Shown here: positions 13,673-20,542 of the stretch, piece by piece
Layout of the letters: the number at the start of each line of letters is the position of its first letter
Position numbering within the stretch: the stretch's first letter is position 1
Assembly: GCA_964483035.1 (NCBI GenBank)
Contig: CAYZZS010000002.1
Location: forward strand, 24,872-88,871
DNA from: an uncultured Candidatus Saccharibacteria bacterium
GTDB lineage: Bacteria; Patescibacteriota; Saccharimonadia; Saccharimonadales; CAYZZS01
Direction of reading: 5' to 3'
DNA length: 64,000 bases
Notes under the pieces: generated by a model
The model's input: the letters and a program-made list of their open reading frames with translations, nothing else
What the model was told of the DNA's origin: nothing
The model's database searches: none
Program-made: the position numbers and the translations under genes

Positions 13673-14764
13673 ATGGAGCAACTAGCAAGAGATATAGCGG
13701 ACTTTGAGGGTGCGGTGCTGGCTTCCGTGGAACGAATTCGCCTCCAGGAGCTTGAGGCTGAGCTGGCGCAGATAGCTGAGGAGATTGAATCGCCAGATTT
13801 TTGGTCAGATAACCGGCATGCGCAGTCGGTCATGAAACGCCAGGCAAAGCTGCTTGCCAGGGTGGAGCCGTGGCAGCAGCTCCGTTCGGGGTTGGCTGAT
13901 CTGGCTGAGCTGGCTGCACTCAATGACGAGTCTTTGCAGGAAGATCTTACCGCGCAGCTGGCGCAGCTGAAGCAATCGTACGAAGATTTGACCGGGCAGC
14001 TGAAGCTCTCGGGCGACTATGATGATCGAGACGCTATACTCAGTATCTATGCCGGAGCCGGCGGTACGGACGCCCAGGATTGGGCAGCGATGCTACTGAG
14101 GATGTATATTCGCTGGGCCGAACGGCATGGTATGAGCGTTCTGACTATCGAGCAATCCGAGGGTGACGAAGCGGGGCTGAAGAGCGTGACACTGGAGATT
14201 AGCGGCAATTTCGTCTACGGACTGCTGAAGGGCGAGCACGGCGTGCATCGCCTGGTCCGGCTCAGCCCCTTTAATGCCGACAATCTACGCCAGACCAGCT
14301 TTGCCAAAGTTGAAGTACTGCCCAAAATCGAGAATGAAGAGGATGTCGAAATTGATGAAAAGGATTTGCGTATCGATGTATACCGGTCCGGAGGCAAGGG
14401 AGGGCAGTCGGTGAATACAACTGATTCAGCCGTTCGGATTACGCATGAGCCGACCGGTATTACGGTGGCCATTCAGAATGAGCGTTCGCAGCTGCAAAAT
14501 AAAGAAACAGCGCTAACTATCTTGCGCTCCCGCTTGGCACAGCTAAAGCTGGAGCAGCATCAGGAAAAGATTGCTGAGCTAAAGGGGCCGAACCAGTCGG
14601 CGGAGTGGGGCAATCAAATTAGGTCCTACGTTCTCCACCCCTACACTATGGTCAAGGACTTGCGTACCCGACATGAGACCAGTGATACCGAGGGGGTGCT
14701 CGATGGTGAGCTCGACTCATTCATCGAAGCCTATCTTGATTCGCAGATTGGTGAACAGAGTTAG
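13673..14764 (+). CDS. prfB: Peptide chain release factor 2, encoded as a single uninterrupted ORF (no programmed +1 frameshift site)
   Basis: SPF motif (RLSPFNADN), GGQ motif (RSGGKGGQSVNTT), near end-to-end alignment to E. coli RF2; no early in-frame TGA. Confidence 0.9.
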   Translation: MEQLARDIADFEGAVLASVERIRLQELEAELAQIAEEIESPDFWSDNRHAQSVMKRQAKLLARVEPWQQLRSGLADLAELAALNDESLQEDLTAQLAQLKQSYEDLTGQLKLSGDYDDRDAILSIYAGAGGTDAQDWAAMLLRMYIRWAERHGMSVLTIEQSEGDEAGLKSVTLEISGNFVYGLLKGEHGVHRLVRLSPFNADNLRQTSFAKVEVLPKIENEEDVEIDEKDLRIDVYRSGGKGGQSVNTTDSAVRITHEPTGITVAIQNERSQLQNKETALTILRSRLAQLKLEQHQEKIAELKGPNQSAEWGNQIRSYVLHPYTMVKDLRTRHETSDTEGVLDGELDSFIEAYLDSQIGEQS

Positions 14765-14863
14765 CTGAAGCAGCGTTCTGCTGGCTGCAGTGCTGGAATT
14801 CCGATATCGTCGCCAGCCGTAATCCGACATAGTGAAGCTGTAAGCAGTCCCGCGGGAGGTGTT

Positions 14864-15061
14864 ATGCGATATCAGAGTACGATGCCGATGCTATCAAAAC
14901 ATAGCAACATCTGGCAATTGCCGGATAGCCCGGGCACCGTTCCACCCAGCAGGCCGGGCCAACCAGATGAGGGGCCTGAGGTTCCGAACCCGGATCCTGG
15001 CGTGCCGATTCCCGAGGAACCGGACGATACTCCTTCTCCCGGTATGGGCGAAGTTTCGTAG
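14864..15061 (+). CDS. Small Pro-rich acidic hypothetical protein (65 aa)
   Basis: GGGAGGTG Shine-Dalgarno 4-5 nt before ATG; lies in the 357-bp prfB-ftsE gap; low-complexity PxP composition, could be spurious. Confidence 0.25.
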   Translation: MRYQSTMPMLSKHSNIWQLPDSPGTVPPSRPGQPDEGPEVPNPDPGVPIPEEPDDTPSPGMGEVS

Positions 15062-15121
15062 ATAGAGCGGACTTTTGCCGGCTGTAATGCTTTAGCATAT
15101 CTGTTATAATTATCTTCGTTC

Positions 15122-15805
15122 ATGATACTTCTGGATAGGGTAACAAAAATATATGGCCGCCATGCCAGCCCGGCAATTGAACGGGTTAATTTGCATGTAG
15201 AGCCGAAGGAATTCGTTATCGTAGTCGGCTCCAGTGGTGCCGGAAAATCAACACTCTTGAAGCTTCTGACCAGAGAAGAGAAGCCGTCGAGTGGCAAGAT
15301 TATCGTTGGCGGCGTGGATTATGACAAGTTGCGTGACCGTGACATACCGCTGCTTCGGCGCAAGATCGGCGTGGTATTTCAGGATTTCAAATTACTGCCA
15401 AATAAAAGCGTAGCTGAGAACGTGGCTTTTGCGCTGGAAATAGTCGGGATGGGAAGCCGGGAGATTCATCATACCGTGCCGCGGGTGCTGGATATTGTCG
15501 GATTGAAGGGCAAGGAAGGCCGTATGCCGCAGGAGCTGTCCGGCGGTGAGCGCCAACGCGTGGCAATCGCCCGGGCGATTGTCCGCCAGCCCAAGATCCT
15601 AATTGCTGATGAGCCGACCGGCAACCTTGACCCGAAGCATGCCTGGGATGTGATCCGGGTGCTGGAGAAGATCAACAAATACGGCACTACCGTGTTGCTG
15701 ACAACCCACAACAAGGAAATCGTTGATAAGCTACAGCGTCGGGTCATTACTATCAAAGACGGCAAAATTTTTAGCGATCAAGCCCACGGGGGTTATACCG
15801 GATGA
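15122..15805 (+). CDS. ftsE: Cell-division ABC transporter ATPase FtsE
   Basis: Walker [10 protein letters not shown], signature LSGGERQR, Walker B ILIADEPT; co-linear with E. coli FtsE. Confidence 0.9.
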
Positions 15806-16758
15806 GGAACGAGAGCACGATCAAGAGCCGACTTATTACACTCGGCCGGATTGTCAGGGCAGGCTCGAAAAACCTGTTTCGTAACGCCTGGCTCAGTATC
15901 GCGGCCATTGCAGTCATGGTCGTGGCACTGACCATTATTCTGCTGGCTGTCGTGTTGAATGTGACGGCGCGGAATGCGATCAGCGAACTGTCAAAGAACC
16001 TGAAAGTCTCGATATATCTGCATGAAGATGTGTCGGATCAGCGCCGGCAGGAGTTGGAGCAAGCGCTGCGGGCAAGCGAGTACAGCGCGTCTGTGGAGTA
16101 TATTTCCAAGGATCAGGCGCAGTCCCGATTCACCCAAAGTTTTCAGAATGATCAAGAGCTCCTTGAGGGGCTGATGTTGGCTGGTGCTGATACTCTGCCG
16201 GCGTCGTACGAGGTAGGGGTTAGTGACCTGAGCCGGATGCAGGAGATTGAAACGATAGCTGGCAGGGAAGATTTTTCCGATATTGTCGAGAGCATCACAC
16301 TTGGCCGGACTGACGCCCGTCGCACTATTGATCGAGCTGCCTCAGCGCAAGGCTTCATTACTCGCGCCAGTGTATTCTCGGCTACGGTCTTCACCATAGT
16401 TTCGGTACTGATTATTTTCAATACCATCCGTATGGCGATCTTTACCCGTTCTGAAGAGATTCGAATCATGAAGCTGATTGGAGCCACGCCAAGCTATATC
16501 CGTGGCCCGTTTTTGGTCGAGGCCTCGCTTTATGGCATTATCGCTGGATTGATAGCCGCCGGTGCGGTATATTCCATTGTCTTGTCTATCGGGTCCAAGA
16601 TCGCTTCGCAGCCGGAGTTTGCGCAAACATATAGCTTCTTCACGCTACCGGCATCTGTTGCTATGGTGCTGGTGTGCTCGGTGCTTGCCGGTATTTTGGT
16701 CGGTGTCTTCTCCAGCGCCCTGGCTATGGAGCGGCACTTGAAGCTAAAGCATTGGTAG
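15802..16758 (+). CDS. ftsX: Cell-division permease-like protein FtsX
   Basis: 4-bp overlap with ftsE (ATGA), TM1-large extracellular loop-3 TM topology typical of FtsX. Confidence 0.9.
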   Translation: MRNESTIKSRLITLGRIVRAGSKNLFRNAWLSIAAIAVMVVALTIILLAVVLNVTARNAISELSKNLKVSIYLHEDVSDQRRQELEQALRASEYSASVEYISKDQAQSRFTQSFQNDQELLEGLMLAGADTLPASYEVGVSDLSRMQEIETIAGREDFSDIVESITLGRTDARRTIDRAASAQGFITRASVFSATVFTIVSVLIIFNTIRMAIFTRSEEIRIMKLIGATPSYIRGPFLVEASLYGIIAGLIAAGAVYSIVLSIGSKIASQPEFAQTYSFFTLPASVAMVLVCSVLAGILVGVFSSALAMERHLKLKHW

Positions 16759-16855
16759 GGAAGCTAGTCGTATCGCTGCCTGTCGCCCGGCCTGTTTTTG
16801 CATTTCATCTGGAAAATAGTTATGCTACCATGGGATTATGTCATAGGCTAATGCC

Positions 16856-18028
16856 ATGCGAAAAAACATAAAAACTACCAGAATAAAACAGTATCCAGCA
16901 TTTGTTGTCATAGCCGCCTGCTTGCTGGCGGCTGTTGGCTTTATGGGTAGTTTTCAGGGCAAGACCGGTGCTGAGTCCATTGATGAGCTGCGGGAAAAGT
17001 CAGCCCAGCTTCAGTCAGAAATCAATGAGGCGAATCGCAAGGCAGCTGAACTTGCGGACCAGGCCAGTTCACTAGAGAAGGCAGTTGCCGAACTGGATAT
17101 TCAGATTGAGCAGGCCACCAAAGAAATTGAACTGACAAACGTAAAAATTGCCGAACTGGAAGAAGAGCTGCGTATTACACAGGCCGAACTCGAACGTCAG
17201 AAAGACCTCCTCAAAGCCAACATGCGCGCTCTCTACAAACGGGGCGGCGCCTCCACAGTTGAAATGCTTGCCGCCAGCGACAGCTTCACTGAATTTATTA
17301 ACGACCAGGAATACCTGGAGCGGCTGAAGGTTTCGATACAGCAGTCGACGGAGAGGGTGATTGCCCTAAAGCAGCAGATTCAGGCGCAGCAGACCGAGCA
17401 AAAAGCACTGCTCGCTAAACAGGAGGCTGCCAAGCTGTCACTGGATAACACACGGGCAGAACGTGCTAACTTGCTTGAAGCGACTCGCGGCGAAGAGGCG
17501 CGATTTAGGGAGTACAGCCGCAGCCTGGCCGATCGGCAACGTGAGATTAACCGGGAACTGCTTCGCCGAAGCCGTATTGTCAGTACCGGCGGGTCGGGGA
17601 ACTATCCTTGGGCTCATGCGCTTTGCTCCATTACGCATCAGGTGGACGGTGGATGCTGGGATTACGAATGGTATGTCGACAGTTTCTGGAACCGACAAGA
17701 TCCCTGGGGCTATTATTATCGGAACTGTACGTCATATGTCGCCTGGCGAAGTGCGCAGAACGGGCTTGAGGTGCCGGGACTAGGTAATGGCGGTGCCTGG
17801 GCAAGTAACGCCTGGAAGCACAATCTGCCCACTGGCAAGACGCCAAAACGGGGTGCATTTGCAGTGTTTACGACCGGCGGCTATGGCCATGTGGCGTACG
17901 TTGAAGATATTAAAGGTGGCGAAGTGCTAATAAGTGAGTATAATTTTGTAGCGGACGGTGTGTATTCCGAGCGCTGGATTCCACAAAACCAGCCAACTAG
18001 CTATGTGTATACACCGTGGTCATATTAA
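16856..18028 (+). CDS. Coiled-coil + CHAP-domain peptidoglycan hydrolase (PcsB-like)
   Basis: Signal-anchor, roughly 200-aa coiled coil, C-terminal CHAP with Cys (NCTSYVAWR) and His (GHVAYVE). Confidence 0.8.
   Translation: MRKNIKTTRIKQYPAFVVIAACLLAAVGFMGSFQGKTGAESIDELREKSAQLQSEINEANRKAAELADQASSLEKAVAELDIQIEQATKEIELTNVKIAELEEELRITQAELERQKDLLKANMRALYKRGGASTVEMLAASDSFTEFINDQEYLERLKVSIQQSTERVIALKQQIQAQQTEQKALLAKQEAAKLSLDNTRAERANLLEATRGEEARFREYSRSLADRQREINRELLRRSRIVSTGGSGNYPWAHALCSITHQVDGGCWDYEWYVDSFWNRQDPWGYYYRNCTSYVAWRSAQNGLEVPGLGNGGAWASNAWKHNLPTGKTPKRGAFAVFTTGGYGHVAYVEDIKGGEVLISEYNFVADGVYSERWIPQNQPTSYVYTPWSY
17180..17342 (+). repeat. 163-bp segment identical to 18421-18583 (copy 1, inside CHAP gene coiled-coil)
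   Basis: Direct comparison of the two stretches (acaggccgaactcgaacgtcag...gtttcgatacag) shows no mismatches. Confidence 0.85.
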
Positions 18029-18058
18029 TAGGGTAAATACGAACATTGAGGGTAAATT

Positions 18059-19270
18059 TTGCGAGAGGGTAAAAGCAGCATAAGGCACAAACAAAGAGAG
18101 CGCCAGGCAACACAAATACGGAAAAAAAGCAGCAGGCTGCTATTTGGAATTGCTACCGTGCTTATTGCAGCTGGCACCTACTGCGGGTACCTGACGCATT
18201 CAACGGCAAGCGCACAGTCGGTTAATGAGCTCCGGGCGCGTTCCGCGCAGTTGGAGGCAGAGATCAAAGCCAATGAGCAGCGGGCAGCGGAACTACATAG
18301 TCATGCTGAGACATTGGCCGAGAAGCTCCAAGAGCTGCGATACGAGATCGAGCATGCCAATAAAGAGATTCAGCTGACTAAGTTGAGGATCGAAGAGCTC
18401 ACTAAAAAGCTGGAAGAGACACAGGCCGAACTCGAACGTCAGAAAGACCTCCTCAAAGCCAACATGCGCGCTCTCTACAAACGGGGCGGCGCCTCCACAG
18501 TTGAAATGCTTGCCGCCAGCGACAGCTTCACTGAATTTATTAACGACCAGGAATACCTGGAGCGGCTGAAGGTTTCGATACAGGAATCGGCGGTAAAAGT
18601 AGTTGAGTTGCAAAAGCAGATCGAAGCAGAAAAGCAGGAGCAGGAAGCCCAGAAGCAGCACCAGGAAGAGCAGCGCCGTGTCCTTGATGCCAAGCGTCAG
18701 GAGCAGAGCGATCTCCTGGCTCGAACCCAAGGAGAGGAAGCGAAGTACAAGCAGGTGGTTGCCCAGCAGCGCCGAGAGCTGAAAGAGGCAGAAGATAAGC
18801 TGGCAAGACTGCTATCAGCCGGAACGACCGTTTCTCAAGGGCCGGTTTCGCGCGGCCAGAAAGTTGGCTCTCTCGGCAGTACCGGTTATTCAACCGGACC
18901 CCATCTGCATTTCATGGTTCGTCATAATGGCGCGACCGTAAACCCTTCGGCTGGGGGGCGCAGTCTGATTAATGGCTACTCATGGCCGATTGCCGGCGGT
19001 GCGGGTTGGATTTCGCAGCACTATGGCTGCGTGGCGCCTGCTGGATTTTATGCTCAAAGCTGTAATGGGGGCCGCAACAGTGTGCACAGTGGTATGGATA
19101 TTGCTGCCAGTGCCTATACGAGCATTGTTGCTGCAGCTGATGGTGAAATCGTGTTCCGCGGCTGTTCCGGTGCACTCGGATACGTTGTCGTGATTGACCA
19201 TGGCGGTGGGTGGCAGACCTGGTATCCGCATATGGTGACGCCATCCGGCCAGGTTTACGGCTACTGCTAG
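18059..19270 (+). CDS. Coiled-coil + M23 (LytM) metallopeptidase (EnvC-like); M23 motifs in circularly permuted order
   Basis: [13 protein letters not shown] (HxH block, aa ~270-285) precedes HSGMD (HxxxD, aa ~343) and IDHGGG/YPHM. The canonical order is the reverse. Confidence 0.8.
18421..18583 (+). repeat. 163-bp segment identical to 17180-17342 (copy 2, inside M23 gene coiled-coil)
   Basis: Same as above; both encode [54 protein letters not shown]. Confidence 0.85.
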
Positions 19271-19303
19271 GCGCAAGTCGTAGTACAATGCATTGAGTAA
19301 TAC

Positions 19304-20542
19304 GTGAGGGGACGGGTGTCGGAATTAGACAAACAATCAAACCATGAACGCAAACTAGGCTTTTCCGGTATTCGGGCTGCCGCCGCTGTAATAGGTGTGA
19401 GCGGTGTATTCGCGCTCGGCGTTCTGTTCGGCCAAGGCAAGATAACGATCGGTGCGGATGGTGTATACCGGCAATCAGCCAATACTTCCTTGCCGGCTGA
19501 TCTGGATTACTCAAGTGTCGAGGAAGTCTATGATGCGCTCAGGGCCAGCTATGATGGCAGATTAAGCGTAGAAGATCTCATTAACGGTCTAAAGCGGGGA
19601 TTGGTCGAAGCGAGCGGCGATCCGTACACTGAATTCTTTGACGAAGAGGCTGCCCGGGAATTTAGCAACGAACTAAACGGTTCATTCACCGGTATCGGTG
19701 CGGAGTTAGGTCGGGAGAATGAGTCGATAATTATCGTGGCGCCCATCAGCGGATTTCCGGCAGAAAAAGCCGGCCTGCGCCCCCGTGATGTTATTGCCGA
19801 GGTTGATGGCGAGAGTGCTTATGGCTGGACCGTGCAGCAGGCAGTCAGTAAGATACGCGGCCCAGAAAACACCAACGTAACGCTGAAGGTAGTCCGCGGG
19901 GGAAGTGAAGAGCTGACGTTCGAAATTACGCGGGCCCAAATCACCATCCCGAGCGTTACATCGGAGATTCTGGACGGTAATATCGGCTACCTGCAGATTA
20001 GCCGGTACTCCGAAGACACCTCTCGGCTTGCCCGGACAGCGGCTGAAGACTTTAAGGCAGCCAGCGTGAAGGGTGTAATATTGGATCTGCGCAGTAATCC
20101 CGGCGGACTGCTTGATTCTGCCGTGGATGTCGCTAGTCTCTGGCTGGACAACAAGACAGTACTTGAGGAAAAGCGTGGCGATGTCGTAATAAAGACGTTT
20201 AGGTCCCGTGGTCGGCCGGTACTGCTTGGAGTGCCGACAGCTGTACTGATCAACGAAGGAAGCGCCAGTGCCAGTGAGATTACTGCCGGCGCCCTCAAGG
20301 ATCATGGTGCAGCGACGCTTATTGGAGTAGAGTCGTTTGGGAAGGGCAGCGTACAGCAGGTGGAAGAGCTGCGCGGTGGCGGCGCACTGAAAGTGACGAT
20401 TGCCCGTTGGTTTACGCCACATGGAGTAAATCTTGACAAGGAGGGCATCAAGCCGGATCAGAGTGTCGAATTTACTGAGGACGATTACAAGAACAATCGT
20501 GATCCGCAAAAAGACGCTGCAATCAAATTCCTCAACCAATAG
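19304..20542 (+). CDS. ctpA: Carboxy-terminal processing protease (S41, PDZ-containing) CtpA-like
   Basis: PDZ region (GFPAEKAGLRPRDVI), S41 catalytic region (LDLRSNPGG, GSASASE), GTG start. Confidence 0.85.
   Translation: MRGRVSELDKQSNHERKLGFSGIRAAAAVIGVSGVFALGVLFGQGKITIGADGVYRQSANTSLPADLDYSSVEEVYDALRASYDGRLSVEDLINGLKRGLVEASGDPYTEFFDEEAAREFSNELNGSFTGIGAELGRENESIIIVAPISGFPAEKAGLRPRDVIAEVDGESAYGWTVQQAVSKIRGPENTNVTLKVVRGGSEELTFEITRAQITIPSVTSEILDGNIGYLQISRYSEDTSRLARTAAEDFKAASVKGVILDLRSNPGGLLDSAVDVASLWLDNKTVLEEKRGDVVIKTFRSRGRPVLLGVPTAVLINEGSASASEITAGALKDHGAATLIGVESFGKGSVQQVEELRGGGALKVTIARWFTPHGVNLDKEGIKPDQSVEFTEDDYKNNRDPQKDAAIKFLNQ

Follow-up and report, generated by a model that had tools for sequence, protein, structure and literature searches.

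An FtsEX locus with two hydrolases on coiled-coil hairpins of a common kind

The stretch analysed here, called the window in the following, comprises 64,000 nucleotides (nt) of contig CAYZZS010000002.1 from an uncultured Candidatus Saccharibacteria bacterium. Within it, ftsE and ftsX are followed by genes for two coiled-coil hydrolases, first CHAP and then M23, and for the protease CtpA. We think that this locus is probably a divisome cell-wall-cleavage operon, made up of FtsEX, two exported and catalytically competent hydrolases that dock on it through like hairpins, and a ctpA-encoded protease. An earlier note on this DNA had read the gene series ftsE-ftsX-CHAP-M23-ctpA head to tail at 15122-20542, and the open reading frames (ORFs) together with Pfam matches for every domain bear this series out. 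FtsE has the ATPase, and FtsX the extracellular and C-terminal permease domains (Pfam), that characterize FtsEX as a type VII ATP-binding cassette (ABC) mechanotransmitter.

The two hydrolases share a common plan. AlphaFold2 models were calculated from alignments of 100 sequences for the CHAP protein and 93 sequences for the M23 protein, and reached a mean predicted local distance difference test (pLDDT) of 87 and 82.5, respectively. Both models contain a hydrophobic N-terminal helix, a long helix I, a loop, a helix of 7 residues, a second loop, a long helix II and the catalytic domain. The helices extend over residues 42-238 of the CHAP and 55-253 of the M23 protein, so that the coiled coil of roughly 200 amino acids (aa) that had been assigned to each hydrolase beforehand is correct. 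The hairpin linker was located at residues 131-143 in the CHAP protein and 144-156 in the M23 protein; the latter model is built of helices 86-143, 147-153, 157-223 and 227-253, followed by the M23 domain. Across their N-terminal 228 residues the two proteins are 53% identical, and they are unrelated after that. Both begin with a basic N-terminus and a hydrophobic helix. The M23 protein carries an ASA-Q motif, which would make a cleaved signal peptide as likely as a signal anchor.

We compared both models with the PDB using Foldseek. Matches were judged by rank and E-value only, and the global TM-scores were low (0.2-0.3) because long coiled coils bend differently. The best match of the CHAP model was PcsB (4cgk, E 2e-9, 377 columns, about 19% sequence identity). 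Lower matches were CHAP domains; these were followed by FtsEX-bound EnvC (8tzl_E), FtsEX-bound RipC (8idc_E) and the N-terminal coiled coil of RipA (6ewy). In this protein, the N-terminal hydrophobic helix and the hairpin coiled coil (42-238) are followed by the CHAP domain at residues ~240-390. C291, H345 and N363 are invariant in 100 sequences and E350 is nearly invariant. With PcsB as the top fold match and Cys291, His345 and Asn363 invariant, the PcsB-like label of the earlier note holds. We infer that the CHAP protein is an exported, catalytically competent PcsB-like cysteine peptidase or amidase, its export being argued by analogy with EnvC, PcsB, RipC and CwlO.

The likeness to S. pneumoniae's FtsEX–PcsB system includes the signal sequence, the coiled coil of about 200 aa and a CHAP domain at the C-terminus. 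Furthermore, a weak match to Pfam CC_PcsB at residues 109-154 falls on the hairpin tip of the CHAP protein. PcsB is described as a hydrolase directly controlled by FtsEX without an intermediary. The locus differs from this system in that the CHAP gene lies directly after ftsX, that its tip is common to a second hydrolase of other chemistry, and that ctpA follows. In the FtsEX–CwlO system of B. subtilis and the FtsEX–RipC system of Mycobacterium and Corynebacterium, a coiled-coil adaptor also bears a cysteine-peptidase-type domain directly under FtsEX, but these domains are NlpC/P60 and not CHAP or M23. Enzymes of the CwlO/RipC type require the extra cofactors SweC and SweD in some species (PMC6705773).

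The M23 protein is most likely an active enzyme

The M23 protein consists of a hairpin coiled coil (55-253) and an M23 domain (256-403) that is circularly permuted. The zinc-binding and catalytic motifs HSGMD (343-347), HLH (282-284) and YPHM (H391) are all present. Since 93 homologues show no variation at the five metal-binding and catalytic residues H282, H284, H343, D347 and H391, the protein itself is most likely an enzyme, a zinc endopeptidase.

In the Foldseek comparison, the best matches of the M23 model were EnvC (8tzl_E, 6tpi_A), followed by PcsB. The model shares with EnvC of the E. coli and Vibrio FtsEX–EnvC systems (6TPI, 8TZL) an antiparallel coiled-coil hairpin whose linker contains a short helix, a helix preceding the catalytic domain and the C-terminal M23/LytM fold. 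The EnvC coiled coil is a hairpin of two long helices, linked by a segment that contains a six-residue helix (PMC7668044). This overall architecture, together with helix 227-253, which resembles the restraining arm of EnvC, could mean that the M23 protein acts like EnvC as a non-catalytic activator, binding FtsX and switching on either the CHAP enzyme encoded next to it or a separate amidase. We consider such a role unlikely. EnvC is catalytically dead and activates amidases, and its LytM domain is without catalytic residues (PMC7668044), whereas the M23 protein keeps all five, as do its homologues, and its LytM domain is not degenerate. In addition, the M23 protein is the sole hydrolase between ftsX and ctpA in many related genomes. 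The permuted order of its M23 domain is a further difference from EnvC. The EnvC-like LytM factor that the earlier note had proposed is thus retained with respect to its hairpin architecture, for which EnvC supplies the top structural matches, and given up with respect to the function of an inactive activator that the term implies.

The hairpin tip is identical in the two hydrolases

The longest identical DNA run between the CHAP and M23 genes measures 165 nt, with flanks that are only ~55-60% identical. It begins 23 residues before the end of helix I, runs through the linker and takes in the initial 19 residues of helix II. It is centred on the hairpin linker and coincides with the weak CC_PcsB match. 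The proteins are consequently identical over 55 residues at the tip. Because the identity reaches synonymous sites, it points to gene conversion and not to purifying selection alone as the reason why the tips are the same. A distant Saccharibacterium (locus L003) possesses an independent exact tract of 200 nt that starts at the same codon, while its tip is only 46% identical to that of the window. A third exact tract, of 99 nt, was found in L114. In all paralogue pairs the tip is the best-conserved segment of the coiled coil (75-96% versus 27-59% in the arms). In dual loci other than those with long exact tracts, the tips of the paralogues still reach 75-77%, compared to the same 27-59% in the arms, and also in tandem coiled-coil M23 pairs of Clostridia similarity peaks at the tip.

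In EnvC, FtsX is bound at residues 114-127 and 142-160, on either side of the linker, and equivalent sites have been predicted for PcsB (PMC7668044). By analogy, the tip would be the FtsX-docking site of both hydrolases. The tip is the part of both AlphaFold2 models with the lowest confidence, which fits a surface that needs a partner.

Gene order and content of the slot in relatives

The earlier note had proposed to check the conservation of the gene order in related genomes. This check revealed the order ftsE-ftsX-[one or two coiled-coil hydrolases]-ctpA in ~60 loci of the candidate phyla radiation (CPR). Every related locus that extends far enough keeps the linkage to ftsEX and ctpA, and the usual surroundings are secA-M16-prfB-…-pyrG-response regulator. 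The matches listed from the scan of the genome collection were mostly distant Clostridial relatives, and close relatives were added by exact-protein look-ups and a metagenome scan.

The content of the slot between ftsX and ctpA is variable. A CHAP gene only is the commonest state (~25 loci). CHAP followed by a permuted M23 gene was found in the window and in L001, L082, L083, L088-L090 and L114, and the reverse succession in L003 and L092. A permuted M23 gene is the only hydrolase gene in L002, L005, L113, L122, L124, L125 and L131. L087 has two permuted M23 genes, and L127 has a second M23 gene whose order is not scoreable. A coiled-coil CHAP gene is combined with a second CHAP gene in L119-L121, and with a canonical M23 gene further downstream in L129. 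The second CHAP ORF of L119-L121 has no detectable coiled coil and lies between the coiled-coil CHAP gene and ctpA. Small ORFs without a Pfam match occur between ftsX and the first hydrolase gene in L001 (3993-4682, minus strand) and L084 (4398-4961, plus strand); the window has none. The CHAP and M23 set, earlier taken for a trait of the lineage, is therefore one state of a variable lineage-specific cassette. Taken as a whole, the earlier interpretation is supported in part: a PcsB-like and an EnvC-like architecture are confirmed, and an inactive activator and a fixed pairing of the two hydrolases are not. The permuted M23 domain and the exact repeat, both described here, go beyond the earlier note.

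The combination of ftsEX, a coiled-coil M23 gene and ctpA is not lineage-specific. It is present in Clostridia, Negativicutes, Armatimonadetes and Dormibacteraeota, and among the matches listed, ftsE-ftsX followed by a canonical coiled-coil M23 gene and ctpA is common outside CPR, often with two M23 paralogues. Because this arrangement is widespread in Clostridia and other phyla, the core module is ancient. The clusters of these four groups resemble the locus in gene order, in a coiled-coil M23 protein with HxxxD and HxH motifs, and in frequent tandem paralogues that are most similar at the tip. They differ in the canonical order of the M23 domain and in the lack of a CHAP paralogue in the slot among those sampled. 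In the Clostridial loci L015, L027, L031, L050, L056 and L068, tandem coiled-coil M23 paralogues follow directly after ftsX. In the first copy, HxGxD is kept, HxH is not recognisable and the C-terminus is a low-complexity tail of Asn/Thr/Glu; the second copy keeps HxH but often lacks HxGxD. From their sequences, these pairs look like a complementary degeneration of a duplicated FtsEX effector.

Saccharibacteria are epibionts. One or both hydrolases might hence be exported weapons or attachment factors that act on the host wall, the adjacency to ftsEX being inherited synteny without a functional link. A rapid turnover such as that of the slot's catalytic domain is typical of genes involved in conflict. 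Lysins commonly contain CHAP and M23 domains, and the Foldseek matches of the CHAP model include phage and staphylococcal lysins. We nevertheless regard this explanation as improbable. The coiled-coil adaptor and its strongly conserved tip are retained in every variant, always directly after ftsX, the tip is kept identical between paralogues, and free-living Clostridia and other phyla have the same arrangement.

The M23 domain is circularly permuted

In a canonical M23 domain, HxxxD precedes HxH. In the M23 protein this order is reversed, and the HxH half comes before the HxxxD half. In an alignment to 3slu, residues 342-393 (HSGMD…YPHM) correspond to 245-296, while residues 258-297 (…GPHLHF…NP) correspond to 300-339. 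Likewise, Pfam PF01551 places its profile positions 2-53 at residues 342-393 of the native protein and the rest upstream. When the halves were artificially rejoined in the canonical order, a single Pfam M23 match was obtained that covers positions 2-96 of 96 with 97.6 bits. The permuted domain (260-400) was modelled with a pLDDT mostly above 90, except for one block of ten residues at 83. As a consequence of the permutation, the coiled coil joins the domain immediately ahead of the HxH strand, and a new conserved tail, TPxGQVYGYC, forms the end of the protein. The permutant has conserved cysteines at positions 335, 369 and 403; the window protein and its close relatives have an additional cysteine at 324.

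Without exception, the permuted order is kept in the >90 homologues (46-62% identity), which come from independent assemblies of NCBI, JGI, ENA and Logan. When 1.84 billion cluster representatives were searched with the domain only, ~25-35 permuted clusters (50% identity) were among the best 150, and most of them are 380-400 aa long with the domain at the C-terminus. Permuted copies beside ftsX were found in Saccharibacteria, Berkelbacteria and Gottesmanbacteria among the matches listed from the genome collection. Among these matches, all homologues from Clostridia, Negativicutes, Armatimonadetes, Dormibacteraeota and Actinomycetes in which both motifs can be scored have the canonical order, and so have M23 copies of other Patescibacteria that are unlinked to ftsX.

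The permutant was probably derived from a tandem M23-M23 duplication with subsequent trimming of the ends. Since these two steps would generate a permutant, tandem M23-M23 proteins are the expected intermediate, and the 17 proteins with such tandem domains among the matches listed from the search of cluster representatives are plausible intermediates. Direct M23 tandems include P0256, P0262, P0276, P0286, P0289-P0291, P0295, P0299, P0301 and others, in which ~55-80 residues separate the first HxH from the second HxxxD. A shorter, seemingly permuted protein (P0310) was rejected from the family; its halves are arranged in C-N-C order, a partial tandem, and it is not encoded beside ftsX.

No account of a permuted M23/LytM domain came up in the literature, which we covered incompletely, so that this is no proof of novelty. 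Two features appear to be undescribed, namely the permuted M23 fold of FtsEX effectors in CPR and the putative docking tip that is gene-converted. The nearest precedent are the circularly permuted NlpC/P60 families, YaeF/Poxvirus G6R and LRAT-like (PMC6403190). There, too, a cell-wall peptidase domain is permuted and its catalytic residues are swapped in sequence order, but fold and catalytic mechanism differ from M23.

The window comes from a metagenome-assembled contig, the NCBI proteins P0001 and P0121 occur together on one contig of 94 kb, and polishing can homogenise repeats. It is nevertheless very improbable that the permuted order, the 165-nt repeat or both are assembly or annotation artefacts, or that the M23 gene is a decaying pseudogene, given that more than 90 homologues from independent assemblies have the same order, intact ORFs and invariant catalytic residues, that the order recurs across the 50% identity clusters, that the domain is modelled with high confidence, and that the independent assembly L003 has its own 200-nt tract of different sequence. 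For the permutation, we rejected this explanation.

Organization of the locus and its surroundings

The coordinates of the genes, of the exact repeat and of the two halves of the M23 domain are collected in Table 1. The reading frames of ftsE and ftsX overlap by 4 nt. After ftsX, the genes are spaced by 97, 30 and 33 nt, and all five ORFs are co-directional. A promoter and terminator scan, which was uninformative on operon boundaries, found no convincing plus strand terminator between the genes of the cluster. No amidase gene was found in the putative operon.

The TTG start of the M23 gene is preceded by the Shine-Dalgarno sequence GAGG and agrees with the N-termini of homologues. The NCBI model of this protein (P0001, 370 aa) begins at GTG 18158 and cuts into the signal sequence. 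For ctpA, an in-frame GTG at 19316 with GAGGGG before the codon is an alternative start. The translated ctpA product carries the motifs GSASASE and FGKG, and thereby the Ser/Lys dyad of S41 proteases, besides its PDZ domain.

Table 1. Features of the ftsEX-ctpA locus (positions in the window)
Feature	Position	Strand	Product or content	Pfam match
ftsE	15122-15805	+	ABC ATPase, 227 aa	ABC_tran, E 1.6e-36
ftsX	15802-16758	+	membrane subunit, 318 aa, extracellular domain residues 68-150	FtsX_ECD, E 4.3e-16; FtsX permease, E 1.5e-14
CHAP hydrolase gene	16856-18028	+	coiled-coil CHAP hydrolase, PcsB-like, 390 aa	CHAP, E 1.4e-19
165-nt exact repeat, copy 1	17177-17341	+	CHAP protein residues 108-162	
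M23 hydrolase gene	18059-19270	+	coiled-coil M23 hydrolase, 403 aa from TTG 18059	Peptidase_M23, E 3.7e-24, two stretches
165-nt exact repeat, copy 2	18419-18583	+	M23 protein residues 121-175	
M23 'C-terminal half', placed first	18821-18955	+	residues ~255-299, GPHLHF with H282 and H284	
M23 'N-terminal half', placed second	18968-19270	+	residues ~304-403, HSGMD (H343, D347), YPHM (H391), tail TPxGQVYGYC	
ctpA	19304-20542	+	S41 C-terminal processing protease with PDZ, 412 aa	Peptidase_S41, E 6.4e-48; PDZ_6, E 3.4e-12

In the window, secA, an M16 peptidase gene and prfB lie 5' of the cluster, and pyrG and a response regulator gene lie 3' of it. Bacterial prfB genes commonly contain a programmed +1 frameshift site. 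Here, prfB (13673-14764; release factor 2, SPF motif) is one uninterrupted ORF of 363 aa without such a site. The gap between prfB and ftsE (14765-15121, 357 nt) contains no convincing ORF, and Rfam detected nothing in it; the equivalent gap of L001 carries an ORF of 151 aa without a Pfam match. Nearly all long ORFs of the window (1-64000) are on the plus strand and GC skew is positive throughout. Scans for tRNAs and Rfam families detected none in the 64 kb.

Discussion

The following mechanism would be in line with a divisome cell-wall-cleavage operon. FtsE and FtsX would form an ABC-type mechanotransmitter. Two exported hydrolases, CHAP and M23, would be borne on the same kind of antiparallel coiled-coil hairpin, and the tip of each hairpin would dock on the extracellular domains of FtsX. 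The ATPase cycle of FtsE would then free each hydrolase from autoinhibition. Since the tips are identical, both hydrolases would dock on one common site of FtsX. For EnvC, binding to an FtsX dimer is 1:2 (PMC7668044). If an FtsX dimer holds one hairpin and the tips are identical, the two hydrolases would compete and dock as alternatives. Such competition would lead to two populations of FtsEX complexes that differ in bond specificity. The catalytic domain on the adaptor is exchangeable, in that the slot of relatives is occupied by CHAP, by M23 or by both. The S41/PDZ protease would most likely trim or degrade both hydrolases. Docking, activation, competition and the substrate of CtpA are proposed here by analogy with known systems.

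For CtpA, the comparison is with LbcA–CtpA of P. aeruginosa. There, CtpA is likewise a C-terminal processing protease of the S41/PDZ kind, and it has cell wall hydrolases as substrates that it degrades (PMC6050968, PMC8764530). In the window, the substrate relation of CtpA is suggested by conserved adjacency alone.

Several points weigh against the divisome reading. Searches of the PDB with the coiled coil alone, both as one sequence and as a profile of 14 sequences, retrieved generic coiled coils only and neither EnvC nor PcsB. The assignment of the tip as a docking site consequently draws on analogy, on topology and on weak matches in Foldseek and Pfam. Of ~11 dual loci, only 3 have long exact conversion tracts. 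Moreover, conversion may simply have occurred at the tip because the two genes were most similar there beforehand, and consensus polishing could in principle sharpen exact repeats in assemblies of metagenomes. The link of CtpA to the hydrolases is suggested through guilt by association, and the spacing of the five genes is the sole basis for treating them as one putative operon.

A more far-reaching proposal, which we regard as tentative and rather doubtful as a whole, is that CPR bacteria use a structurally distinct, circularly permuted M23 endopeptidase as FtsEX effector. The tether, moved to the HxH strand, could let FtsEX gate the active site directly, and the tail TPxGQVYGYC could be a signal to CtpA. 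Gene conversion would keep the tips identical so that two chemistries alternate on one FtsEX. The regulatory relevance of the permuted junction and of the new C-terminus is speculation. In the literature on FtsEX in Saccharibacteria or Patescibacteria, as far as our incomplete coverage goes, we found nothing relevant.

FtsEX-controlled hydrolases are a leading model for how wall-cutting enzymes are switched on from inside the bacterial cell. To our knowledge, each species studied so far has one adaptor and one chemistry. The locus can be seen as a natural experiment, because the same adaptor and putative docking surface carry two catalytic domains in one genome, and relatives swap the domains freely. 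This opens the model of docking and release to direct testing. The permuted M23 domain changes the junction between the regulatory helix and the enzyme, and can hence serve as a ready probe of a possible dependence of autoinhibition on this connection. That ctpA is constantly present suggests a layer of proteolytic control that is unstudied alongside FtsEX. Finally, the locus bears on the question how ultrasmall epibiotic bacteria with minimal genomes divide.

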